The translations under genes and the position numbers were made by a program. Source: a virus (taxonomy: Duplodnaviria; Heunggongvirae; Uroviricota; Caudoviricetes). Taken from it: a stretch of DNA of 64,000 nucleotides. The notes beneath the pieces were generated by a model. The model had not been told where the DNA came from. It worked only from the letters and a program-made list of their open reading frames with translations, and did not search any database. Of the stretch, positions 40,483-51,682 are shown piece by piece; the first letter of the stretch is position 1, and each line of letters starts with the position of its first letter. Location of the stretch: IMG/VR virus record IMGVR_UViG_2565956614_000003. One strand, 5' to 3'.

Positions 40483-40751
40483 GGGCAGGTGTTCCCTTCC
40501 GCAAAGTAGGGAAAATTGCTATCAAGTTCATCACACCATCTGCGTTGGTCGTAGCACCAAAACGCCTCCCACGGTGCACGGAAATACTTCATCCACCAGG
40601 ACACTCGATCAGGTATATCTGCTGGTGGCAGTTCTTCTGGCAATAATTTGCCTGATAATTCCCTTTCCGCCCGCGACAGCATTTTTTTGAGGCTCGCGTT
40701 CTCTTTTTCAAGCTCATCTACGCGCACCTGTAATTCAGCTTTCGTTGGCAT
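40467..40751 (-). CDS. Hypothetical small protein (start MPTKAELQ preferred; longest ORF to 40832)
   Basis: Coiled-coil N-terminus, Cys-rich C-terminus (CPQCRG). Confidence 0.4.
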   Translation of the reverse strand: MPTKAELQVRVDELEKENASLKKMLSRAERELSGKLLPEELPPADIPDRVSWWMKYFRAPWEAFWCYDQRRWCDELDSNFPYFAEGNTCPQCRG

Positions 40752-41673
40752 GGTCCACCTCATGCTTTTCAGCCACCAGCGGCAATAAAGCCCTGGCCAT
40801 CTTATGAACCAATAGTGCATCAATAATGCCAAGCGTATGCCCCGGCTTAATGTTTAATGCCGCCTCAAGGTGACACCTTTCCAGGTCACTTTTCTCGGCT
40901 TGTTTATGATGATCTGGTGTAATAACGTCGCCCAAAACACGGCTAATTCTTTCTCGTAATTGCTGGGTGCCAGCACACTTGATCGCTGTATCGTGGAGAC
41001 GGTTAACCAGTTCGCGATAAACATGCGGCTTAATGCGGATACGTTCACCGGTGACGCCCTTTCCTGGCGCTGGCACCGAACTATCCGGAATATCCGGATA
41101 GTTGCCAGCCTCGTAAGCTACCCACAGCCAGTGCATGAATGTTTCAGTGGACACACAACCACAGTCCACATCGATTTTCCCGCGTTGCTGTTCCAGCCAT
41201 TGCCCAAAATCCAACCTGTAAGTCTTACTTTCAAGTTCATCACCATTGAACTCGACTTTCTGCGACGCTATGAGAGCTGATTCGTATTGTTCGCGAGTGA
41301 CAACTGACTGGTATTCATCGCTATCAAGGCCACCAATTGGAAGCTCAATCTCACAACAAAAATTGCGCCCAAAGAAAGTGTCTTTTTTGTGGTCTGAGCC
41401 AAAAGCAAAAGTCGCGCATGGTGCCATTAAATTGACACTGGGTAGGTAACAATAACTCATTCCATCAGGCCACCCGCCGCACTTAGGCAGCTCCTTCACT
41501 AACAAGTCGATAAGCTTCATTTTTTTATCATCTTTGCAAGCCGCCAAAGCCATTTGGGCAAGTGCCAATACTTCATCTGCCGTATATCCAGCACCGTGAC
41601 CATACATTTCGATACGGGAAATAATCTCTGATATACGCTCTTCAGTGATTCTGGTCATTTCTTTTTGCGCCAT
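40735..41673 (-). CDS. Hypothetical protein
   Basis: 312 aa, protein-like composition, tightly packed in minus-strand operon. Confidence 0.55.
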   Translation of the reverse strand: MAQKEMTRITEERISEIISRIEMYGHGAGYTADEVLALAQMALAACKDDKKMKLIDLLVKELPKCGGWPDGMSYCYLPSVNLMAPCATFAFGSDHKKDTFFGRNFCCEIELPIGGLDSDEYQSVVTREQYESALIASQKVEFNGDELESKTYRLDFGQWLEQQRGKIDVDCGCVSTETFMHWLWVAYEAGNYPDIPDSSVPAPGKGVTGERIRIKPHVYRELVNRLHDTAIKCAGTQQLRERISRVLGDVITPDHHKQAEKSDLERCHLEAALNIKPGHTLGIIDALLVHKMARALLPLVAEKHEVDHANES

Positions 41674-42029
41674 TTCTTTTCACATTCCTTAGTCCATTTT
41701 TCAATGTTCATTTTGGCAATATCGGTCATTCCATCACCTAAGAAATACTTTCTCCGGTATGTCTTGCACTTAAACCACACTACAACAGCCACCAGCCAGA
41801 AAATAAAAGGCCATACAGCAATACCAACGACTGCCGCGATAAAGCTCAATATCCATAAATGAAGCTCTCCAACTTCTGTTTCCGGCAATATTCTTAAAGA
41901 ATTAAACAGTAGGCTGAACGCATGGTCGTATGCATTGGCAGTATAAGACATGCAATCCATATAATTAAAGTCATAGCCTGCGGCTGCCGCCCATAATGGG
42001 CGGTCAAGAAAATGTTTTAGTGTCATCAT
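41655..42029 (-). CDS. Hypothetical membrane protein
   Basis: 124 aa with two hydrophobic helices and Lys-rich C-terminus. Confidence 0.5.
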   Translation of the reverse strand: MMTLKHFLDRPLWAAAAGYDFNYMDCMSYTANAYDHAFSLLFNSLRILPETEVGELHLWILSFIAAVVGIAVWPFIFWLVAVVVWFKCKTYRRKYFLGDGMTDIAKMNIEKWTKECEKKWRKKK

Positions 42030-42035
42030 ATAAAT

Positions 42036-42425
42036 TTAAGGTTCAGACCAGTTATCTTCAATAGCAATGCTTAATCTTTGTAGCCATTCTGCTAATTTCA
42101 GCATTGCTTCTCTTTCGCTTAAACCACGAGGAAAATCATCAAGCGAAATTGTTGGCTTGAAGCCCCCGTAATTATCCATTTCAACTGTCAGATTTTGCTC
42201 CAGCACGGTATTCCTTACGCGGCTATTGTGCCGAAGCAAATATACTGAACGTGATTTATTGGTTTTATGGTCAAACTGATATTCGGTAAGTATCATCTGG
42301 CTTTTGCCATGACTATTACCTCTCCACATACTTACCTCACTTAATAAAACAACTCCATGCGTAGTTGATGATTTTTTCCCACGTAATATAAATCTGCACT
42401 CCGGCAGTAAAACCAAAGCCAACAA
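42036..42425 (-). CDS. Hypothetical protein
   Basis: 129 aa ORF in operon. Confidence 0.45.
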   Translation of the reverse strand: MLALVLLPECRFILRGKKSSTTHGVVLLSEVSMWRGNSHGKSQMILTEYQFDHKTNKSRSVYLLRHNSRVRNTVLEQNLTVEMDNYGGFKPTISLDDFPRGLSEREAMLKLAEWLQRLSIAIEDNWSEP

Positions 42426-42507
42426 TTGCTGAAAAAATCAAAACATTTACTTTTGACATTATAAATTTTCTCTCGGTGTCGTAGGTGATAGCACCATAAT
42501 TGATAAT

Positions 42508-42741
42508 TTAGTGAGTTAGCAGTTCCATTTTTTGGATGATTTCCGCATGAGCATCATCGTTATCAACACTTAACTCGTTTAATGCCTCTCGCACTACATC
42601 AACTTCTTCAGGCTGAAAGAAGTCGTCGCGGTAATCACCAAATAGAACCGAAACCAGCCTGCCACCAGCAACATCAAGATTGGCGCTAACAGGTGGCTCT
42701 TTGCCATCCTCAAATTCGACAACAAAAGTTAATTTTCCCAT
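42508..42741 (-). CDS. Hypothetical small acidic protein
   Basis: 77 aa. Confidence 0.45.
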   Translation of the reverse strand: MGKLTFVVEFEDGKEPPVSANLDVAGGRLVSVLFGDYRDDFFQPEEVDVVREALNELSVDNDDAHAEIIQKMELLTH

Positions 42742-42817
42742 CGTTACCCCCAGAAGATAAAAATAGCGGCAATCGCCATAGCTACGCCTACAATCGCAAA
42801 TGCTTCAGGCCAGCTCA

Positions 42818-43228
42818 TTACCGCACCTCAAGTCTCCATACCGCCTGACCAATCCGGCTGGCATGGGTATCTTTGGATACTGTTCCGTCTTTAGCCAGCT
42901 CCATAAGAATTTTGCGCAAATCTGCCGAGCGCCATTCTTCATCAGGAAATTCCTTCTCCATTGCCAACCGCAGATTCCAGGTTGCCATCCTGAATGGATA
43001 TTCCCCGCCGAGAGCTTTATCTTGCAGGGCAGCCCGGGAACGCATCACCTGCAAAACCTTCTCTTTTACATCCATCATTTCGCCTCCTGCGGCGGTTCTG
43101 GTAGCGGCATCCAGAACAAGGCGTTCCCTAACCACGATAAAGTGCCGTCGCTCAACTCCACGTACGGTAACAAGCCAATACATGCCACACGCACTACTCA
43201 CCTCCGTTGATGCGAATGCCTGTTGCAA
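42818..43228 (-). CDS. Hypothetical protein
   Basis: 136 aa. Confidence 0.45.
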   Translation of the reverse strand: MQQAFASTEVSSACGMYWLVTVRGVERRHFIVVRERLVLDAATRTAAGGEMMDVKEKVLQVMRSRAALQDKALGGEYPFRMATWNLRLAMEKEFPDEEWRSADLRKILMELAKDGTVSKDTHASRIGQAVWRLEVR

Positions 43229-43682
43229 TGCTGTTTATGATGCTGTCAGTGCATGGGGTAGAAAGCTGGGCATCTCCAGCAATTTTCATGACATCAACAT
43301 CTGCATATCGAATACCGAGGTGTATCAGACCGGCTATACCTGACTTAAGCCGAGCATTTTCCATAAACAGATCCTTTGCCCGCTGTTTTTCTGCCTCAAG
43401 CTCAACGCGCAACTTCCCTACCGTTAGCGCAATATCCTCGTTCTCCTGATCGCGGGATTTGATGTATTGCTGGTTTCTTTCCCGTTCATCCAGTAGTGCC
43501 AGCACGGTTTCTGGTCCGGCCAGAAATTTGAAGGCGTTGAGCGCATCAATATCCACACCGTAATCTTTAAGTTCCTGTTCACTTAACAAATCATCATCAG
43601 CTGGCAACATTAACAGGCGTTCCATTGCTGGAATTGCACGTTCCGCCGCCTCACGCAGTGCCTGATAGTCAATCTTGCTCAC
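43194..43682 (-). CDS. Hypothetical coiled-coil protein (GTG start overlapping upstream stop)
   Basis: 162 aa; start within shared 17-bp junction motif. Confidence 0.5.
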   Translation of the reverse strand: MSKIDYQALREAAERAIPAMERLLMLPADDDLLSEQELKDYGVDIDALNAFKFLAGPETVLALLDERERNQQYIKSRDQENEDIALTVGKLRVELEAEKQRAKDLFMENARLKSGIAGLIHLGIRYADVDVMKIAGDAQLSTPCTDSIINSIATGIRINGGE

Positions 43683-44038
43683 TGGTTGCCTCCTTTTCGA
43701 AGCTGGGCGGCGATATCTTCGAGAACGCCATCAGAGAATGAGCGGTCAAAATCGCCTTCCGGCGCATTAGCCATAAACTCAGTAGAGGTAAGAATCATCC
43801 GGGCAATATCCGCGGCGTTCTTCGCGGTATCATCAATAAAACCAGCTTCCCAGGCAGCCAGCATTCTGTTCGCCACAAAATAAGCGCCTTCCTTGCGTGC
43901 TTCAGTCTTCACTTCAGCTAGAAAAGCATCGGTATGGCAATGGAATGAGGCGTTATTACCCACAATTTCACGCAAGCACATCATGTAAAAACGGTTACTC
44001 ACTGGTTGCCTCCTTGGCGGAGTTGCGCTGCGATGCAT
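43679..44038 (-). CDS. Hypothetical small protein, paralogue of the next gene (C-terminus ...AAQLRKGGNQ)
   Basis: 119 aa (true start possibly internal Met); shares C-terminal motif and 17-bp junction with 43999-44238. Confidence 0.45.
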   Translation of the reverse strand: MHRSATPPRRQPVSNRFYMMCLREIVGNNASFHCHTDAFLAEVKTEARKEGAYFVANRMLAAWEAGFIDDTAKNAADIARMILTSTEFMANAPEGDFDRSFSDGVLEDIAAQLRKGGNQ

Positions 44039-44238
44039 GAAAAAAAAGACTCCCGAGTGTGACAGTTAAGAGCTGGTGCGAACGCCGCGTTAAGAACGGC
44101 GGCATCACAGCCGTCATCAATATAGAGCGCAATTTTTTTCTCCAGGCGCGCTTTGGCTTCCTGCAACTGCATACCCCGGCACGCACGCGGGATATAATCA
44201 GCAATTTGAGCGATAGCTTTTTCGTTCTGTTTAAACAT
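43999..44238 (-). CDS. Hypothetical small protein, paralogue of previous gene (C-terminus ...AAQLRQGGNQ)
   Basis: 79 aa. Confidence 0.45.
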   Translation of the reverse strand: MFKQNEKAIAQIADYIPRACRGMQLQEAKARLEKKIALYIDDGCDAAVLNAAFAPALNCHTRESFFSCIAAQLRQGGNQ

Positions 44239-44434
44239 GCTTCACCTCGATAGGCTTGATGGTGTCTAACAGCAGTCGGCGGCGCGTATTTTCTGCAAAA
44301 TGGCGGCGTCCAGTTTCTTTGTGGTAAAACTCGTTTTTGCCAACGACCCACATCCGCTCTGTTTGGTGCAGTTTTTTTACCTTCGGGCCATCTTTGGTGA
44401 TCACGGTACCGGTATGGGTTTTTACGATTGTCAT
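44231..44434 (-). CDS. Hypothetical small basic protein
   Basis: 67 aa, overlaps neighbours by 4-8 nt. Confidence 0.4.
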   Translation of the reverse strand: MTIVKTHTGTVITKDGPKVKKLHQTERMWVVGKNEFYHKETGRRHFAENTRRRLLLDTIKPIEVKHV

Positions 44435-45309
44435 TCCACTACCTCTTCGAATTTCAACTCCAATTGGTCACCCCAGATTTCACATGATTCGGAACACGAA
44501 CCAGTATCAAACCGCTTGGCCAGCACCATCGCCTGATACAAATTTCTGTAGTCACTGTCGGCATACATTCTGGCAATCCCGTCAAGCGTCAGGTGGCCAC
44601 GGTACATAACGTCTTTACCTGTTCTGCGATGACCATCCCTGACGTGTTTGCCTGTAACCAGTTCATTAAAAACCCGCATCAGACCTGGTTCGTCTTTACA
44701 TGCAAGCCCCAGCTTTTGCGTTGACTTTTTGATGCAAAAAACACAGTTCCCGAGGTGCTCCGGGATTTGCAAATCAAAAGGTTGTTTTCGCCACCACCGG
44801 ATAACATCCGACTTATCAAAATCTGACAGTTCGGCAAGATACCGGACGCCCGGTTTCGGTTTCAGCCTACGGGGTTCGTCCGCACGAATACCCAGCCATG
44901 TGATGTAATTCCCTCGCCCAAAATGGTCATCGCAATATTTCGTGAAAGGGGTGAGTTTTAGCCTGTCAGTACAGAACGCGCCGCCGATGTATGGCGTACC
45001 GTACTTTTTAACCATGTCCATAAACGGTTTAAGCACCGGCATTCGCGTCTGAATATCCTTTGGTTCCCATTCCGTATAACCATTTGGCTGCCCAATTTCT
45101 GGATTTATATCGACCTGCAACACCGTTAGCGGTACGTTCCAGAACTTCACAACCTCACGAATAAAGCGATACGTCAGAGGATGTTCACAGCCGGTATCCA
45201 TAAAAATGAAATGGACGCTAGCGCCAGCTTTTCGCTGTGCTTCCATCAGATGAACGAGATAAGCCGATGTTCGTCCACCTGAAAAGCTGACGACTTGATG
45301 CATACTCAC
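44431..45309 (-). CDS. PAPS-reductase-family / PP-loop ATP pyrophosphatase-like protein
   Basis: 292 aa; N-terminal PP-loop VVSFSGGRTSAY; Cys cluster near C-terminus. Confidence 0.7.
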   Translation of the reverse strand: MSMHQVVSFSGGRTSAYLVHLMEAQRKAGASVHFIFMDTGCEHPLTYRFIREVVKFWNVPLTVLQVDINPEIGQPNGYTEWEPKDIQTRMPVLKPFMDMVKKYGTPYIGGAFCTDRLKLTPFTKYCDDHFGRGNYITWLGIRADEPRRLKPKPGVRYLAELSDFDKSDVIRWWRKQPFDLQIPEHLGNCVFCIKKSTQKLGLACKDEPGLMRVFNELVTGKHVRDGHRRTGKDVMYRGHLTLDGIARMYADSDYRNLYQAMVLAKRFDTGSCSESCEIWGDQLELKFEEVVE

Positions 45310-45312
45310 GGT

Positions 45313-46041
45313 TTATTCCTGAATGCGCTTAAACTCGATTACCCACACCCAGGGATTAGCGTTCCAGCTTTCTTCACCATAGATGGATTCCCACAGGCGC
45401 TGGAACGCAACCTTGGCCATTGCGAAATCCCCCTTGGGAGTAAGGAATGTTCCCGGGTGATCAGGAAGCAAACTTCCAGCAGGCGGAACGCCCTCAGCCC
45501 TTGCATCGCATTCGCTGATATCGTTCAACCGTTCAACGCGCACGTTGGTAATTTCCAACAGAATGCGTGATGCCCATCGCGGCATGTGAATTGATGGACG
45601 CCACCCACCATCAAACTTTTCATTCACAGTGTGAGGTTTCCAGTCGGCATCATCGGGTATCGACCATAAGCCGTAATCACCAGGTTTTTGCTCGCAACTG
45701 GCCCGATAAATCCTTGCTGCGTTCTTCTCATCGCCACGACAAAGGTTGTCGTTCCAGTCCACACTGCAACCATCCTCATTGCCTAATATCGCCCATGTTT
45801 CACGAACCCAAATTCGATCGCCGACGATACCAAAGGGGCAATTGAAAACACTGCTTACACCATCAGCCCCGTACCACTGAAAACCTGCACCAATTTCCCT
45901 AACCATCACTGGTGCTTCTGGACCAACTTCCGCAGGCTGATTTTTCATTATCCGCCGCGTCTGCGTTTTCCTTCCTTCGAGGATGGCTCGGACCATCTCA
46001 TCGTTGAAAATCATGCCGCGCTCTTTCACTTCGCCTTTCAT
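45313..46041 (-). CDS. Hypothetical protein with N-terminal MVRAILEGRKTQTRR motif (ASCH-like)
   Basis: 242 aa. Confidence 0.5.
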   Translation of the reverse strand: MKGEVKERGMIFNDEMVRAILEGRKTQTRRIMKNQPAEVGPEAPVMVREIGAGFQWYGADGVSSVFNCPFGIVGDRIWVRETWAILGNEDGCSVDWNDNLCRGDEKNAARIYRASCEQKPGDYGLWSIPDDADWKPHTVNEKFDGGWRPSIHMPRWASRILLEITNVRVERLNDISECDARAEGVPPAGSLLPDHPGTFLTPKGDFAMAKVAFQRLWESIYGEESWNANPWVWVIEFKRIQE

Positions 46042-46219
46042 GCATCCCCCTTACCCATGCGCGACGATGCCGCCAAAAGTGATAGAGAACAGCCAGAAAT
46101 AGATCGCGGCCATAATGATTTTGAATGCCGTGTTCATATTTTCAGCTCCTGTGATTGATTGGATACATGCCGCGCCTTACGGCATGTTTTTATTTTCACT
46201 TTCTCTGTTTTAAAAATCA

Positions 46220-46236
46220 AGATTTATTAGAGCAAT
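46220..46236 (-). promoter_or_regulatory. C1 operator-like site (16/17)
   Basis: agatttattagagcaat, about 180 bp upstream of the 45313-46041 gene. Confidence 0.55.
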
Positions 46237-46742
46237 TATTGTTGATGTAGAAGCGCGTTTTCATACTCCCTGACCATTAACGTAAGTACGCCGTGACTCC
46301 TGAAAACACGCGCCACTTCAATCTTATCTTCCAGCGCGAACGCAATTTTACTTAGACCAATTTTCTTCAGGAGATCAATCTTTGCTGGACCGTCATTTCT
46401 GTCATCGGTGGCAGGACGCATAGATAGCAAAGGCTCCGCCCCATTTGTTACGTGCTTACGCAACCAGGCTCGTGTTTTATCCCTGGCTATCTCACAGCGC
46501 CCGGTTACAAACCAGAGGGTGTAAATGCCGGACAACTGGCGCACCATATCAATAACTGGAGTGATGGGAGCATCAGTGTCACAGGCAAGGTTAAACTCGT
46601 TCCAGTGCTCTGTTAATGCACCTTTGCCAGGTGGTGGAAGTAAATGCAGCCTGTCTTCCGTTGCCTCTGATATCGTCCCATCAATATCTACTATGACGAT
46701 GTACGGACGTTCCTGGTGTGCGTGTTTATTGAAAATACTCAA
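46236..46742 (-). CDS. HAD-superfamily phosphatase-like protein
   Basis: 168 aa; HAD motif I IVIVDIDGT. Confidence 0.55.
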   Translation of the reverse strand: MSIFNKHAHQERPYIVIVDIDGTISEATEDRLHLLPPPGKGALTEHWNEFNLACDTDAPITPVIDMVRQLSGIYTLWFVTGRCEIARDKTRAWLRKHVTNGAEPLLSMRPATDDRNDGPAKIDLLKKIGLSKIAFALEDKIEVARVFRSHGVLTLMVREYENALLHQQ

Positions 46743-46815
46743 ATGCCCTCCTCATTGGACGAAAAAAAATGCTGGTGGGAGCACTCCACCAGCATTAAAA
46801 GTGACACTGTAACTA

Positions 46816-48078
46816 TCAGCGAACGTAAATAGTGCCGCCGTTCTCTTTTTCCCATGCATCGCTACGTGCATAGCAAACATCGAGAAGTCTTCTTGCCGCA
46901 GTTTCCTCTAAACCCAATTCGACAACCAACTGCTCATGACGGCGGGTAACCACATCAAACAGGGTATGCAGCCCTTTAGTTGCCAGATCATCAATGAATT
47001 CCGGTTCGAACGGCAGCTCTGCATCTGCCAACATAACCTCTTGCGCCCACTCAACTCGACGGACCAATTCCGGGCGACGGCTTTCCATCTCTTTACAGAT
47101 CAATTCATGGAAGAACTCTACCCAACCTTCCGGCTGGAACTCGCGGAAAATTGCCAACGGCTGGAAGTTTGGCATCAACCATTCGTTGATTCGGATATCA
47201 ATGGCATAGCCCATGTCGCAGCAGAACTGATAAGCAAAGTCCAGCTTAGAAACGATATAAGGACGCTCGTTATTGAACTCTTTAGGCGATGAGATCCCAT
47301 AAGCCAGGAGGCGCGGGAAGAAGGAGATTTGCCCTAACGTCGGATGAAGTTTGCTTGCAGGGAAACGGCGCTCAGTAATGCCATACATTTCCTTCTTGAG
47401 CGTCGCAAATTTGGCATTCTCATTAACCAGCGCGGTAACCTCTGCTTTTTTATTAGCAAATGCCACGCGCGCCTCGCTTGCATCTTTAATAGTTTTTTTG
47501 AGCTGTTGGTTAAGGTCGGCGACCTGCTTACGCAGTTCCTGTCGCTCGCTTTTAGCTTTGTTATAGCGTTTCTCAAGGTTAAAAGGATCAAGTTTCATGA
47601 TCTCTTTATATTGAGATTTTAGCGTTGAAATCTGTGAGTTCCGCAGTTCAACCATCGCAGTCATTTCATTGAGTTTTGTTTCCAGCTCAATGCTTATACG
47701 TTCGGCATTATCAGCACGCTGGTTGGCGTCATGCGTCGCATCGTCGATCGCGTCCTGTTGCTGGCGTTTCAAATGTTCAATTTCCAGCTGAAGCTCTTCA
47801 ATTTCTTTACCCTTCAGACCGAGATCCAACTGCATATTTTCAGCTGCATCTACCAGGGAGTTATGGCTATCAGCTTCTGCGTTATAAACATCAATAAGCT
47901 GTGCGTGAAGCATCTCCGCTGACTGAACCGCATTATCAAAAAAACGTGCTGTGAGGTCATCACAACTAACGCGGCGTTGCGCGGCCCGGATGTTCTGGAT
48001 AATGGCCGGGATACCGGCATTCAGGACATCAGGGATACATACATTTTCGATTGATTGGTTTTGTGCTGAAGTGCTCAT
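46816..48078 (-). CDS. Hypothetical protein with long N-terminal coiled coil
   Basis: 420 aa. Confidence 0.55.
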   Translation of the reverse strand: MSTSAQNQSIENVCIPDVLNAGIPAIIQNIRAAQRRVSCDDLTARFFDNAVQSAEMLHAQLIDVYNAEADSHNSLVDAAENMQLDLGLKGKEIEELQLEIEHLKRQQQDAIDDATHDANQRADNAERISIELETKLNEMTAMVELRNSQISTLKSQYKEIMKLDPFNLEKRYNKAKSERQELRKQVADLNQQLKKTIKDASEARVAFANKKAEVTALVNENAKFATLKKEMYGITERRFPASKLHPTLGQISFFPRLLAYGISSPKEFNNERPYIVSKLDFAYQFCCDMGYAIDIRINEWLMPNFQPLAIFREFQPEGWVEFFHELICKEMESRRPELVRRVEWAQEVMLADAELPFEPEFIDDLATKGLHTLFDVVTRRHEQLVVELGLEETAARRLLDVCYARSDAWEKENGGTIYVR

Positions 48079-48079
48079 T

Positions 48080-48298
48080 TCAAAGTTCCGTATTAGCTTG
48101 TGCTTCGGTCATTTTTCCTAAGTATGAAGGAGGAAGGACTACGCAATTTGTATCCAGTCCCTCACCTATGGCAGCCTGTAAAATTCTGGCTAAGGTGAGT
48201 CTCTTGTTGCGATACCTGGTGATGACATGCCTGATACCGCCGGTCGGCGTAACAAAGGCGATCAGCCAGTAGTGATATTTCCGTCGGAATGGCCACAT
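48080..48298 (-). CDS. Hypothetical small protein
   Basis: 72 aa, immediately upstream of the 420-aa gene. Confidence 0.35.
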   Translation of the reverse strand: MWPFRRKYHYWLIAFVTPTGGIRHVITRYRNKRLTLARILQAAIGEGLDTNCVVLPPSYLGKMTEAQANTEL

Positions 48299-48312
48299 AG
48301 TGCACCTTGTAG

Positions 48313-48378
48313 ATTGCTCTAATAAAAAACGTGATGAGTGTACATCACGTTTTAAAAATATGGAATTATTAGAGCAAT
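48313..48378. promoter_or_regulatory. Divergent pair of C1 operator-like motifs flanking an inverted repeat (cgtgatg-agtgtac-catcacg)
   Basis: attgctctaataaaaaa (48313-48329) and ggaattattagagcaat (48362-48378), 14/17 each; the first may be part of a terminator T-tract. Confidence 0.4.
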
Positions 48379-48379
48379 A

Positions 48380-49081
48380 TTATTCTGATTCTCGCTCAAA
48401 AAATGAGCTGATAAGGGGAAGCCAATCCTCTGACACTTCGCGAGGTCGCGGTTTGCCGTGGAAAAAGATTATTCGGCAGTCTTTTGGTAATGCCCCATTC
48501 CCCCTGGAGTAACGCGCGCTCGCATATTTTGAACCAGGTTCCACAACATCGGCCTTGTAACTTACAAACCATCCTGGATACAGATCCTGAAATGCTGGTG
48601 TATCATCGCCCATAACCTTTCGTAAGAACCCCTGGTCCCCCCAGCACTCAGTAGTGACACAACGAGAAATCCAACCTTCCGGATCTTGCCAGAATGAACT
48701 CCAGATATGCGCTTTAACACTATTTGGTATCCACAGGGCACCGCTGCCACGATATTGTGGATGGTAAAAATCCCTAAGCATGGTGAAGCTGGTTGGTGGA
48801 TGCTCTAGGATTGGGCGTATATCACCGGCAATAACCGTGTCCAAATCCAGATAGAACAGATCATCGGTTATATCCGGTCGGAACAACTCGATTTTCGCCC
48901 ACCAGCCACGGCACTTTTGCCACTGGTTGATCAATGGGACAACTTTGACGCCAGGTACATGTAAACGCTTCAGGTCTGTCAGGCAAATAATTTCATAGCC
49001 TTTTGGCAGTTGATTAACCAGCCACTGCACATCGGAAGCGTTATAGTCACCACCAGAGCGAAAAACTAAAGCAATCTTCAT
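48380..49081 (-). CDS. Putative nucleotide-sugar transferase (DxD-type)
   Basis: 233 aa; YLDLDTVI DxD-like motif. Confidence 0.45.
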
Positions 49082-49770
49082 GCTGCACCATCACCTTTCA
49101 CTTTCATCAATGTCAGGTTTCCGCAAAATACGGCACCAGTGTCGATATACTGCTGATTCCAGAATGTCTTCGGGCTTTTCACCGGAGTGTGACCAAAGAT
49201 AAAACGATCTGCGCCCGAAATTTCGCCACCAATATCATCCATCGAATCACTGATACGCTCGCGCGCCCAGACAACGTTGAAAAGCGGCACCTCCTTACCG
49301 AATTGGTATTCATTATCCGGATAGTCGGCATGGGCTATAACGATAGTTTCTTGCCCGGTGTTCAACTCAATGATATAGGGCAGACGCTTTACCAGCTCCA
49401 CCAGCGCCCAGGCTAATATTTCCTGATCAGTGTCCAGCATGAAGAACCATTGTCCGCCATTCATTAGCCAGTTATTCACGTTGCCATCTGGACTTAACGC
49501 ATCAATCATCAGCCGCTCATGGTTCCCCATCACTGCCCTGAACCAGGGCATCTGCAATAGTTCCAGACATTCGACATTTTCAGTACCGCGATCGATAAGG
49601 TCGCCGACCGATATCAGTAAATCCTGCGCCGGGTCAAAATCCACACGATGGAGTTCGGACATCAGTCTGGTGTAGCAACCATGCAGATCACCAACAACCC
49701 AGACATTCCTGTATTTGGTACCGTCGATACGGTGATAAATTGTGGGTGCCATCATGTATTCTTCAGCCAT
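49078..49770 (-). CDS. ppp: Ser/Thr protein phosphatase (calcineurin-like metallophosphoesterase)
   Basis: 230 aa; motifs VVGDLHG, GDLIDRG, GNHE. Confidence 0.85.
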
Positions 49771-50378
49771 TCTTTAAGAGTCATCTGCGGAATACCTCCC
49801 ATTTTCCCGCATGAAACAACGTCAATCCGTTCACGCGCAGACTGGAATAACAAAGGCAGGTGACTTAGATTTTTTGGCGTGCCGCCGGAGTGAACGCGTG
49901 GTTCTTGTGTAGCGTCAACGCCCACCAGGGCTACATGTTTGAATCCGATATGGAAAGCCAGGTTCAGAGCACCATATGCACTATTGCCGCTGGCAATTTC
50001 ATTCTCATCTTCGCAAAGTCCGAAATGTGCGGACCAGCGCCACGCCCACCACTCGGGAGAATTCGTATTTTTTGGCTCCATGCCACGTTCAGCCACACGA
50101 CGGAAGCACAGAACGCCGTCTCTGACTTCACGTTCTTTAACATCGGGTAGTGCCATGCAATAACAAACACCACGGCGACGGCGGCCACGACCAACGCGCC
50201 GCATATTGTCTGGCGATGGATCAAGTGTGAAAAAATAAGAAGCGCGGTTCAGCCAGTCGATGGCCCCATTGACCGCTATAATAGGCACTCCGCGCGGCGC
50301 AACAAAGTTTGCGGCGCTTGGGCCACTGCCGACGATAATAACGCGATCACTGCCTCTAAATTTATTCTTGGGAAACAT
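49752..50378 (-). CDS. Rossmann-like protein with GSGPS motif (MptE/DUF115-like), paralogue A
   Basis: 208 aa; IIVGSGPS...VALVGVD; paralogous to upstream gene. Confidence 0.5.
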
Positions 50379-50938
50379 TGAATTGCACTGCTCCTACTTG
50401 CATTCAAAATATGTAAATCTGCGTGTTTTTTGCGGGTATCCAGGAACTGCTGTTGCCATTTTGAAATAGACACCTGCGTTGGATTCCGTAGGGCTTGAGG
50501 GTGCGCGCCATGCCAATGAAGACCGTTTTGCAGAGAACAGTCATAGCCGACTAATACCACTACTTCAGCCCCTGATTCAGCAGCCAGACTGATAGCCTGC
50601 GCGCCGCTATTTACCCCTTCCGCCGGTCCACAATATCGCCTGTACTCCAACGAAAATGATTTCGCCGCCGCCAGGTTAGCTGTCACTTTGCGGAATCTCC
50701 CTCCCGGTATGGTGGATCCGTATTGCTTCCACCATGACAAATCACCGGCGTATAAGGCATAAATGTCATCGAACATCTGCCAGGAATTGTTAACCGCGAT
50801 GATTGAACAGCCAGTTTTTTCTATAGCAGCACAGTCCTCACGAGTGAGTGACGGACCGCTACCGACACAAAAAACAGTCCTAGTCGCCCTGGGTGGTATG
50901 TTCATTCTCAGCTGCAAATTCAGCCTCCAGGCGAGCAT
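50276..50938 (-). CDS. Rossmann-like protein with GSGPS motif (MptE/DUF115-like), paralogue B
   Basis: 220 aa; FCVGSGPS...VVLVGYD; 103-nt overlap with downstream paralogue. Confidence 0.5.
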   Translation of the reverse strand: MLAWRLNLQLRMNIPPRATRTVFCVGSGPSLTREDCAAIEKTGCSIIAVNNSWQMFDDIYALYAGDLSWWKQYGSTIPGGRFRKVTANLAAAKSFSLEYRRYCGPAEGVNSGAQAISLAAESGAEVVVLVGYDCSLQNGLHWHGAHPQALRNPTQVSISKWQQQFLDTRKKHADLHILNASRSSAIQCFPRINLEAVIALLSSAVAQAPQTLLRRAECLL

Positions 50939-51101
50939 TCATTTCAGCGATTACCGGGTCCACTACAGCATCTGCTTCCTGTTCATTACGCGGCATGATC
51001 GATGCCAGCGATTCATAATTAGCCTTGGATGACACGATTATTCTCCCGATGTTAATGTGCGCTATATCAAAGAGCACACATGCACTAATTAATTTATTAT
51101 T

Positions 51102-51680
51102 TCACGCAGCATACAACCACTTGTCACCGTTCAATACATGCTCAATAGCCTCACCCTTTTTAAGGCTCATGTATTCCAGGATGGCGGTTATCGCTTGTTC
51201 TGCACCATACGCAAGAACGACGTAGTAACCTTCCTCTCTAAGCCTGCGCATCCAGGCGATCTGCTCTTTCGTCGGGGCTTTACCATTTGGTTCTTTAAGC
51301 TCAATTCGCATGCCGTGATAAATACCGCATGCTTTATCGAGACTCATGTCCGGATAACCTTTTTTCTGCCCTTCAGCCTTCATTTTCCCGGCGGTTGCTT
51401 TTGAACGTTTCCCTCCGTTAGGCGTTGCATGCAACAGCTCATAGATGTCAGGGTGCTTGCGTTCGAAGTAATCAAAAATGAAAACCTGCTCGAAGTGCTC
51501 GCAATTTCCGTCGCGCAGGTCTGGGTTCTTTGCCAGTGCTGCAAGTGCCTTCGCATGTGGAGAAACTTCTTTTACCGGCGCAAGCGATAAGAATGGATCC
51601 TTTTTGGTTTTTGGCCTGGACCGCCCCTTATTTCGGCGCTCACTAAAAGCCTGAAACTCTTCCTCAGTAAAGCGCAACAC
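51102..51680 (-). CDS. VRR-NUC domain nuclease-like protein
   Basis: 192 aa; C-terminal GYPDMSLDKA..GIYHGMRIELKEPNGKAPTKEQIAWMRRL. Confidence 0.6.
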   Translation of the reverse strand: MLRFTEEEFQAFSERRNKGRSRPKTKKDPFLSLAPVKEVSPHAKALAALAKNPDLRDGNCEHFEQVFIFDYFERKHPDIYELLHATPNGGKRSKATAGKMKAEGQKKGYPDMSLDKACGIYHGMRIELKEPNGKAPTKEQIAWMRRLREEGYYVVLAYGAEQAITAILEYMSLKKGEAIEHVLNGDKWLYAA

Positions 51681-51682
51681 AA

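Follow-up and report, generated by a model that had tools for sequence, protein, structure and literature searches.

Accessory genes of a P1-like phage-plasmid: a putative glycan-building cassette, PmgO/PmgP/PmgQ, within a patchwork of separately inherited genes

Do the enzyme-like genes of a P1-like phage serve one common pathway, and what might they make? Phage P1 is a workhorse, and some dozen pmg genes in it are still listed under a name given in 2004, 'putative morphogenetic function'. The question is raised here by positions 44231-50938 of a 64,000-nucleotide (nt) stretch of tailed-phage DNA from IMG/VR record IMGVR_UViG_2565956614_000003; this whole stretch is called the window below. 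A first-pass annotation made from the sequence letters listed a PP-loop protein, two phosphatases, a putative sugar transferase and two GSGPS proteins in this block and proposed a joint modification pathway. We favor, with a probability of about 0.5, the explanation that three of the genes, pmgO, pmgP and pmgQ, form a glycan-building cassette active in lytic growth. In the same explanation, the block is the accessory region that a P1-like phage-plasmid expresses early in lytic growth, where independently mobile genes make up a patchwork and not a single pathway.

In a megablast search against phage records, the block matched P1 and its relatives at 98-99% identity. Positions 45347-54000 gave a single continuous 8.65-kb BLAST alignment to the P1 RefSeq record (NC_005856, gp087-gp095) at 98.6% nucleotide identity, running from pmgT to past pmgL. 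The genes matched are pmgN-pmgO-pmgP-ppp-pmgQ, pmgR-pmgS-pap and pmgT, and the gene order, the overlaps, the annotated promoters and the operators Op83, Op86a/b and Op88 are all kept. Unlike reference P1, the window has an extra 4.2 kb (41117-45346) that includes the PP-loop gene. The locus is already known and annotated in P1, where RefSeq names PmgQ a glycosyltransferase and PmgO sialyltransferase-like. What is added here is the definition of a conserved, at times fused PmgO/PmgP/PmgQ cassette with its contexts, and the observation that reference P1 has its pmgT region in deleted form. The motifs read in the first pass (SFSGGRTS, DIDGT, GDLHG/GNHE, DxD and GSGPS) were all found on the minus strand where they had been placed, and the family assignments held in profile searches (Pfam and PHROG) and in structure comparison. 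The suggested correspondence to pmg/upf genes of P1 was right for pmg, and extends to ppp and pap; none of the genes is a upf gene. The features are listed below in window coordinates; pmgR, pmgS, the PmgT-like protein and the 67-amino-acid (aa) open reading frame (ORF) had not been mentioned in the first pass.

51079-51095, plus strand: C1 operator Op83 (Oppp), upstream of pmgN-pmgO-pmgP-ppp-pmgQ, placed by P1 homology
50276-50938, minus strand: pmgO, a putative cytidine monophosphate (CMP)-ulosonic-acid transferase with an MptE-like fold (Maf/CstII/WaaZ-type)
49752-50378, minus strand: pmgP, a second, diverged MptE-like-fold protein, the putative partner of PmgO
49078-49770, minus strand: ppp, a lambda NinI-type Ser/Thr metallophosphatase of 230 aa
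48380-49081, minus strand: pmgQ, a GT8-like GT-A glycosyltransferase of 233 aa with a DxD motif
48313-48378: C1 operators Op86b and Op86a, flanking the pmgR promoter (P1 annotation and site scan)
48080-48298, minus strand: pmgR, an essential head-tail joining factor (P1 annotation)
46816-48078, minus strand: pmgS, a dispensable coiled-coil protein of 420 aa
46768-46796, minus strand: strong terminator-like hairpin in the pmgS/pap gap; 6 of the 11 base pairs in its stem are G-C, and a run of T comes next
46236-46742, minus strand: pap, a stand-alone PNKP-type HAD phosphatase of 168 aa with DIDGT and without a kinase domain
46220-46236, minus strand: C1 operator Op88/OpmgT, which controls the pmgT operon
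45313-46041, minus strand: pmgT-like gene, an intact ASCH-domain protein of 242 aa with an insertion of about 75 aa
44431-45309, minus strand: PAPS-reductase-family PP-loop protein (NinC/SspD/DndC-like) of 292 aa, not in reference P1
44231-44434, minus strand: 67-aa ORF (phrog_1226), its start overlapping the PP-loop gene's stop
41117-45346: 4.2-kb non-P1 segment, bounded by the BLAST breakpoints against P1

By comparison of gene neighborhoods, PmgO, PmgP and PmgQ are the only genes of the block that are inherited together as a unit. A lambdoid prophage of Citrobacter rodentium (L004) carries PmgO-, PmgP- and PmgQ-like genes in this order (41, 57 and 43% identity) between the lysis genes and terminase. 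In a phage with a P22-type portal (L003), the first two are fused: the 376-aa protein P0051, encoded directly after the lysis genes, is PmgO-like in its N-terminal half (38%) and PmgP-like in its C-terminal half (49%), and it scores 44.6 bits with the Pfam MptE-like model PF01973, above the cut-off. It is followed by a PmgQ homolog (40%) and then by another GT-A-like protein. A 248-kb metagenomic contig (L102) has all three genes within one locus together with an additional GT-A protein. The trio was also found in two chromosomal loci, one in an Enterobacteriaceae metagenome-assembled genome (L013) and one in Serratia plymuthica (L101), while L014 from Buttiauxella has PmgQ and PmgP only. Ppp is missing from the cassette in L003, L004, L013, L014, L101 and L102, and lies between pmgP and pmgQ only in P1-like elements, including one from Pantoea. 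Outside P1, the cassette is located in or adjoining lysis cassettes at five loci. A search of viral contigs with a three-sequence PmgP alignment returned P1-like matches only and was uninformative.

Fusion partners of the two proteins were also recorded. Further double MptE-like proteins are P0222, P0239 and P0295. In P0307 the PmgO domain is fused to a TylF-type sugar O-methyltransferase, and in P0216 to a 280-aa partner (50% identity), which a Hafnia prophage encodes as a gene of its own following PmgO (L005:7561-8403). This Hafnia-type partner was considered as a GT9-like heptosyltransferase; the assignment was a guess from a motif only, and Pfam and PDB searches gave no confirmation. P0230 joins PmgO to Big_1/Big_13 immunoglobulin (Ig)-like domains. 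P0326 is listed among the PmgO-domain fusion proteins with P0216, P0307 and P0230.

Proteins with Ig-like domains appear again next to the chromosomal copies. In L013 (1357-12419), genes for an inverse autotransporter and for further Big_1 proteins lie scattered among the three. In S. plymuthica (L101, 1014-9442) the PmgO-like gene precedes two Big_1 proteins, with a lipase and a lipoxygenase nearby; no N-terminal signal-peptide-like segment was seen by eye in either Big_1 protein. Chromosomes of Buttiauxella (L014:4726-7604) and Serratia show the order holin, then PmgQ-PmgP-lysozyme, in loci that do not look like prophages. The Buttiauxella, Serratia and metagenome-assembled loci may be a glycosylation module linked to protein release of the holin-endolysin type.

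PmgO and PmgP had been described in the first pass as tandem paralogs. They do belong to one superfamily, as judged from their sequences, and are only distant kin: BLASTP aligned them over the N-terminal motif alone (E=0.004 over 36 residues), and reciprocal PHROG hits were weak. The Rossmann-like fold common to Maf, CstI/II and MptE was found, and the best structural match is the protein O-glycosyltransferase Maf. Homologs with 62-74% identity have precomputed PF01973 hits. The PmgO motifs GSGPS (residues 27-31), NSG (110-112) and GYD (131-133) are invariant in 34 homologs; in the family profile, GxGPS and SG...GxD align with the CstII motifs. PmgP has the corresponding motifs GSGPS, GNSAYG and GVD. 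Residues D66/S111/D133 of PmgO and D53/S133/D155 of PmgP are conserved, with a Ser-to-Asp spacing of 22-23 residues as in CbMaf. The Maf catalytic residues used for this comparison were E324/D415 of MmMaf and D272/S334/D357 of CbMaf (an acidic residue, a Ser and an Asp). In comparison with the Maf flagellin nonulosonic-acid glycosyltransferases (5mu5) and the GT42 enzymes CstI/CstII, PmgO and PmgP, at about 200 aa each, correspond to the catalytic domain alone without the Maf flanking domains. PmgO differs from Maf and GT42 in carrying its own invariant DCS...HWHGxH motif, and in contrast to the Maf systems there are no flagellin or nonulosonic-acid synthesis genes nearby in the window. Single-sequence searches of PDB sequences with PmgO, PmgQ, the PmgT-like protein and PmgS found nothing useful; it took family profiles or models instead. 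With 8,092 representatives (at 50% identity) at E<=1e-3 and 597 at E<=1e-30, PmgO belongs to a large family. MptE-like folds are frequent in uncharacterized viral proteins (29 BFVD matches at E<=1e-3).

The pmgO and pmgP genes overlap. The 5' end of pmgP lies over the 3' end of pmgO for about 100 nt (50276-50378) in the -1 frame, and the C. rodentium prophage keeps the same overlap (L004, 7510-7603) at only 41-57% identity. A programmed -1 frameshift joining PmgO to PmgP was considered and is not supported: P1 and the C. rodentium prophage both keep the pmgP ATG in the same position, and no slippery heptamer was seen. Translational coupling therefore seems likelier than frameshifting. The annotated pmgO start is probably too far upstream, and the true start probably lies about 11-19 codons downstream (50882-50938). 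The first 15 residues are modeled with a predicted local distance difference test score (pLDDT) below 50, homologs begin at about residue 12-20, and starting pmgO as annotated makes it overlap with about 57 nt of pmgN.

The same fold admits another chemistry. PmgO and PmgP could be pyrophosphokinases like MptE and thiamine pyrophosphokinase that make a small phosphorylated metabolite and transfer no sugar, since the Maf/MptE-like fold also takes in such enzymes; the transferase chemistry is thus putative. We regard this as very improbable. The motifs align with the CMP-binding motifs of sialyltransferases, and PmgO and PmgP are read as transferases because their fused or adjacent partners are consistently glycosyltransferase-like or sugar-methyltransferase-like.

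PmgQ contains the sequence YLDLDTV, and its PHROG match is to family 1962 'glycosyltransferase' (2.5e-128). A family profile (A2) searched against PDB matched the GT8-type Skp1 galactosyltransferase Gat1 (6mw5) with E=3.1e-7 over 150 residues; further matches were to glycogenin (about 3e-3) and to the GT8 protein 5gvv (5e-3). The family invariants are D79-L-D81 and H208-G209...P213. GT8 enzymes have a C-terminal, metal-binding His in the region H-x-x-G-x-x-K-P-W, and in the HMMER alignment the His of glycogenin falls two positions before H208 of PmgQ. No Pfam hit to PmgQ was found, PF01501 (GT8) included, and for the L004 homolog E was 0.31. Profile similarity together with the DxD motif marks PmgQ as GT8-like.

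From these assignments a course of action can be proposed. On inactivation of C1, the three would work as soluble enzymes in the cytoplasm and decorate an acceptor there. PmgO and PmgP would act as a pair using a CMP-activated ulosonic acid, and PmgQ would add a hexose from a uridine diphosphate (UDP)-sugar. To our knowledge, CMP-keto-deoxyoctulosonate (CMP-Kdo) is the sole CMP-activated ulosonic acid supplied by every enterobacterial host. The acceptor would be a virion protein or an exported or secreted protein, possibly an Ig-like-domain protein in some hosts. Any benefit to the phage would be an accessory trait, not required for plaque formation. The cassette is predicted to act solely in lytic growth because it is repressed by C1 in P1. 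In the lambdoid elements its place is the late operon, with lysis genes on one side and terminase genes on the other, so that its expression accompanies that of the virion proteins. Ppp, PmgR, PmgS, Pap, the PmgT-like protein and the PP-loop protein would act separately from the cassette.

The nature of the acceptor separates the next two proposals; a protein is judged somewhat more likely than the lipopolysaccharide (LPS) core. In the more specific form of the protein proposal, PmgO/PmgP as a two-subunit Maf/WaaZ-like transferase and PmgQ would O-glycosylate proteins with host CMP-Kdo and UDP-hexose during the lytic cycle; stated in this much detail, it is unlikely. The case for a protein acceptor draws on Maf as the best structural match, on the Big_1 adjacency in L013 and L101, on the P0230 fusion and on the lambdoid late-operon position. 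Maf enzymes in E. coli are described as transferring Kdo onto Ser/Thr (bioRxiv 10.1101/2020.06.03.131540; PMC11339370).

The alternative is that the target of PmgO, PmgP and PmgQ is the infected cell's LPS core, which they would remodel by adding an extra Kdo as WaaZ does and a GT8 hexose as WaaO/WaaJ do. The outer core, which is the P1 receptor, would be changed or truncated; this would limit superinfection or the loss of progeny on debris, or alter the envelope at lysis. WaaZ of E. coli also counts as MptE-like, with a sub-threshold match (6.9e-7), the N-terminal motif of PmgP matches it with E=1e-4 over 36 residues only, and the fusion P0051 has a faint precomputed hit to PF27901 WaaZ_KDO_III. 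The GT8 family includes LPS outer-core glucosyl- and galactosyltransferases, and overexpression of waaZ, going by a title attributed to Frirdich et al. in 2003, reportedly truncates the outer core. The position in or beside lysis cassettes at the five non-P1 loci points the same way. Set against this, Maf, the closest structural neighbor, is an enzyme that glycosylates proteins, the Ig-like links are left unexplained, and late expression in lambdoid phages leaves little time for replacement of surface LPS. WaaZ shares the MptE-like superfamily and the N-terminal motif of PmgP; PmgO, PmgP and PmgQ differ from it in being remote in sequence, carried by phages, kept repressed in the lysogen and not linked to waa genes, and full-length sequence similarity does not place PmgO or PmgP in the WaaZ family (GT73). 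An hhalign comparison of the PmgO profile with WaaZ gave a probability of 9% over 82 columns in the C-terminal part only. We consider LPS remodeling possible but somewhat unlikely.

Several observations weigh against the favored glycan-building cassette or its protein acceptor, and the weak hhalign match to WaaZ, like the pyrophosphokinase members of the fold, is counted here too. The Pfam MptE-like scores of PmgO (23.4 bits) and PmgP (21.0) are both under the PF01973 cut-off of 34.6 bits. The correspondence of D66/S111/D133 to the Maf catalytic residues is by motif order and spacing alone, with no superposition. For Big_1 in P0230, the score of 27.7 falls short of the Pfam cut-off (34.9). With a hidden Markov model built from L013 and L101, no Big_1-like domain was detected in any ORF of the window or of the phage loci L003-L005; the Ig-like link thus has three cases behind it, all outside P1. 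Glycans on P1 virions have not been reported; the published proteome did not look for any. The adjoining lysis genes fit an envelope (LPS) target equally well.

Mycobacteriophages offer a parallel for a glycan-building cassette; Freeman et al. are said to have described virion glycosylation cassettes there in 2023. The shared traits are phage-encoded glycosyltransferases (with methyltransferases in some relatives), late-gene expression and dispensability for plaques. The differences lie in the enzyme families and the hosts, and glycosylation of the P1 virion is putative. No functional study of the genes came up in literature searches on phage DUF115, on what NinC does and on the function of pmg genes. 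If the specific proposal of O-glycosylation with Kdo holds, this would be the first phage Kdo-type protein glycosylation system, in a large uncharacterized family of about 8,000 representatives (50% identity) whose neighbors, in phages as well as bacterial chromosomes, are lysis or holin-endolysin cassettes and Ig-like-domain proteins. Were virion proteins, secreted proteins or LPS glycosylated by the cassette, this could change how immunogenic the phage is, how it adsorbs and how P1-based delivery vectors behave. If it does not glycosylate such targets, the region is an ordinary patchwork of accessory genes.

The control of the block was deduced from C1 operators. In the window, 14 sites resemble the C1 operator with three or fewer mismatches, against 0.33 expected by chance. 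The site at 46220-46236 (minus strand) has one mismatch to the consensus and occupies the same position as P1 Op88; those at 48313-48329 (plus) and 48362-48378 (minus) have three mismatches each and coincide with P1 Op86b/a. The operator-like sites noticed inside the block in the first pass are thus genuine. Op83 at about 51079-51095 has four mismatches. The block consists of three C1-repressed transcription units. The hairpin at 46768-46796 suggests that pap is not simply co-transcribed with pmgR-pmgS.

Are the genes morphogenetic, as their P1 names say? The gene pmgR within the block is essential for head-tail joining, the genes adjoin the tail/baseplate genes 26, 25 and 7, and the PHROG label of PmgS reads 'head morphogenesis'. 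Published P1 genetics speaks to the others. Among 29 single-gene P1 knockouts (Gonzales et al., 2022; PMC9024508), infectivity was lost only in pmgA, B, C, G and R; the remaining 24 showed no plaquing defect and no change in antirestriction in the systems that the study employed. Among its strains are in-frame deletions of pmgN, O, P, Q, S, T, U, ppp and pap, and the pmgR knockout was complemented, the gene being needed for head-tail joining. In a CRISPR interference (CRISPRi) screen (Piya et al., 2023; PMC10695390), pmgO, pmgP, ppp, pmgQ, pmgS, pap, pmgT, pmgU and pmgV were non-essential. That screen scored pmgN (about 50880-51035) as essential and pmgR as non-essential, the reverse of the knockouts in the same table; the discrepancy may be an effect of polarity or of knock-down efficiency. 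The main text of PMC9024508, a virion proteome paper, does not name pmgO, pmgP, pmgQ, pmgS or pmgT. A morphogenetic role for the genes in general is hardly credible: pmgO, pmgP, pmgQ, pmgS, pmgT, ppp and pap are dispensable by knockout and CRISPRi, their names are missing from that text, and the proteins fold as enzymes do. For the enzymes, 'putative morphogenetic function' is therefore a wrong label. The earlier statement that no structural role is evident stands for the dispensable enzyme genes and fails for pmgR, which is essential and morphogenetic.

The remaining proposal is a nucleic-acid or virion modification pathway that counters host defense, with the PP-loop enzyme, the glycosyltransferases and the phosphatases acting jointly on DNA. 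Three of the genes have nucleic-acid-oriented relatives, namely the PP-loop gene (SspD/DndC/BrxP), the PmgT-like gene (ASCH) and pap (PNKP-type 3'-phosphatase), and all are expressed only once C1 repression is lifted. The genes are not co-inherited, and a joint pathway of Ppp, Pap, PmgS, the PP-loop protein and the others is therefore unlikely; the three C1 units and the terminator-like hairpin before pap also speak against the joint pathway inferred in the first pass. Reference P1 has a truncated PmgT and no PP-loop gene. No hydroxymethyl-pyrimidine or deazaguanine genes are present to supply a sugar acceptor on DNA. We found no positive evidence for DNA modification or for an action against host defense, and antirestriction was unchanged in the P1 single-gene knockouts (PMC9024508, in the systems of that study). 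This proposal is quite improbable.

The PP-loop protein, with the motif SFSGGRTS, scores 37.7 bits with Pfam PAPS_reduct (cut-off 22.5) over residues 6-72 only. PADLOC matched SspD at 2.1e-13 (N-terminal half only) and BrxP and DndC at about 1e-4, whereas the TIGR03183 DndC score was 17.6 bits against a cut-off of 290. An identity as CysH, the PAPS reductase proper, was rejected: the match is confined to residues 6-72, the CysH and APS-reductase models scored far under their cut-offs, and ECGLH is not visible in the sequence. Over the N-terminal half only, the protein appears closer to SspD, DndC and BrxP than to CysH. The Cys pairs CVFC and CSESC are visible in the sequence and could hold an iron-sulfur cluster. 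Proteins with about 95% aa identity occur in Stx2a and Shigella phages, and relatives were found in 581 phage records, mostly of Vibrio, Stx2a and Salmonella phages. The protein is of the same family type as SspD, DndC and NinC but lacks their Dnd or Ssp partners: none is annotated beside the gene in a near-identical plasmid or in a Stx2a phage, where the neighbors are small lambdoid early-region ORFs. This absence counts against the anti-defense proposal as well. We tentatively describe it as an SspD/DndC/NinC-like ATP pyrophosphatase that may have been acquired from the early region of lambdoid phages. Stx2a phages carry the gene alone, in their early-left region. A module of the PP-loop and ASCH proteins was considered and rejected: the Klebsiella and Escherichia albertii PmgT-like homologs have no PAPS-reductase neighbor, and Stx2a phages have the PP-loop gene without PmgT.

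The PP-loop gene begins the 4.2-kb segment (41117-45346), which contains accessory genes of the lambdoid early-left type (Ea22-like, DUF551 and others). The segment is common in P1-like E. coli plasmids; 14 records cover at least 80% of the query 40700-45400 and hundreds cover it partly. Over the right-hand part, identity with Stx2a-converting lambdoid phages, in their early-left region, is 92-93%.

The PmgT-like protein has the ASCH beta-barrel fold; Pfam gave no ASCH hit. It shares with ASCH proteins such as YqfB a fold that binds modified nucleosides or RNA, and differs in its 75-aa insertion. Reference P1 PmgT (309 aa, L001:3766-4695) is 99% identical to the 242-aa protein of the window over residues 1-232 and continues with 77 unrelated residues. 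P1 pmgT is probably a damaged copy. A 4.2-kb deletion in P1 removed the end of the pmgT gene, including the last predicted ASCH beta-strand, and this is why P1 pmgT overlaps pmgU. In lambdoid prophages of Klebsiella and E. albertii, PmgT-like proteins occur alone.

Ppp carries GDLHG, GDLIDRG and GNHE, the defining motifs of the PPP family also found in lambda NinI (PP-lambda), and scores 59.3 bits with Pfam Metallophos (cut-off 21.5; 9e-16). It matches the PHROG 246 NinI-like phosphatase at 5e-113 and is stated in the P1 record to be 64% identical to the lambda enzyme. With the NCBIfam PrpA/PrpB-type model it scores 272 bits, under the equivalog cut-off of 326, which indicates a phage lineage and not the host enzyme. 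Pap has DIDGT at residues 19-23, 44.1 bits with HAD_PNKP (PF25109; cut-off 27.6), a match to PHROG 415 'polynucleotide kinase' at 5.7e-56 and a weak match to Pnkp1 (4xrp). In motif and fold it resembles the phosphatase domain of T4-type PNKP, but it has no kinase or ligase partner. PmgS gave weak matches of the coiled-coil type only, and its PHROG entry 'PmgS-like head morphogenesis' is a label only.

An ORF of 28 codons without annotation was noticed at 46051-46137 (minus strand), between Op88 and pmgT. It encodes a hydrophobic peptide, MNTAFKIIMAAIYFWLFSITFGGIVAHG, has AGGAG 8 nt upstream, and ends 9 nt short of the pmgT start codon.

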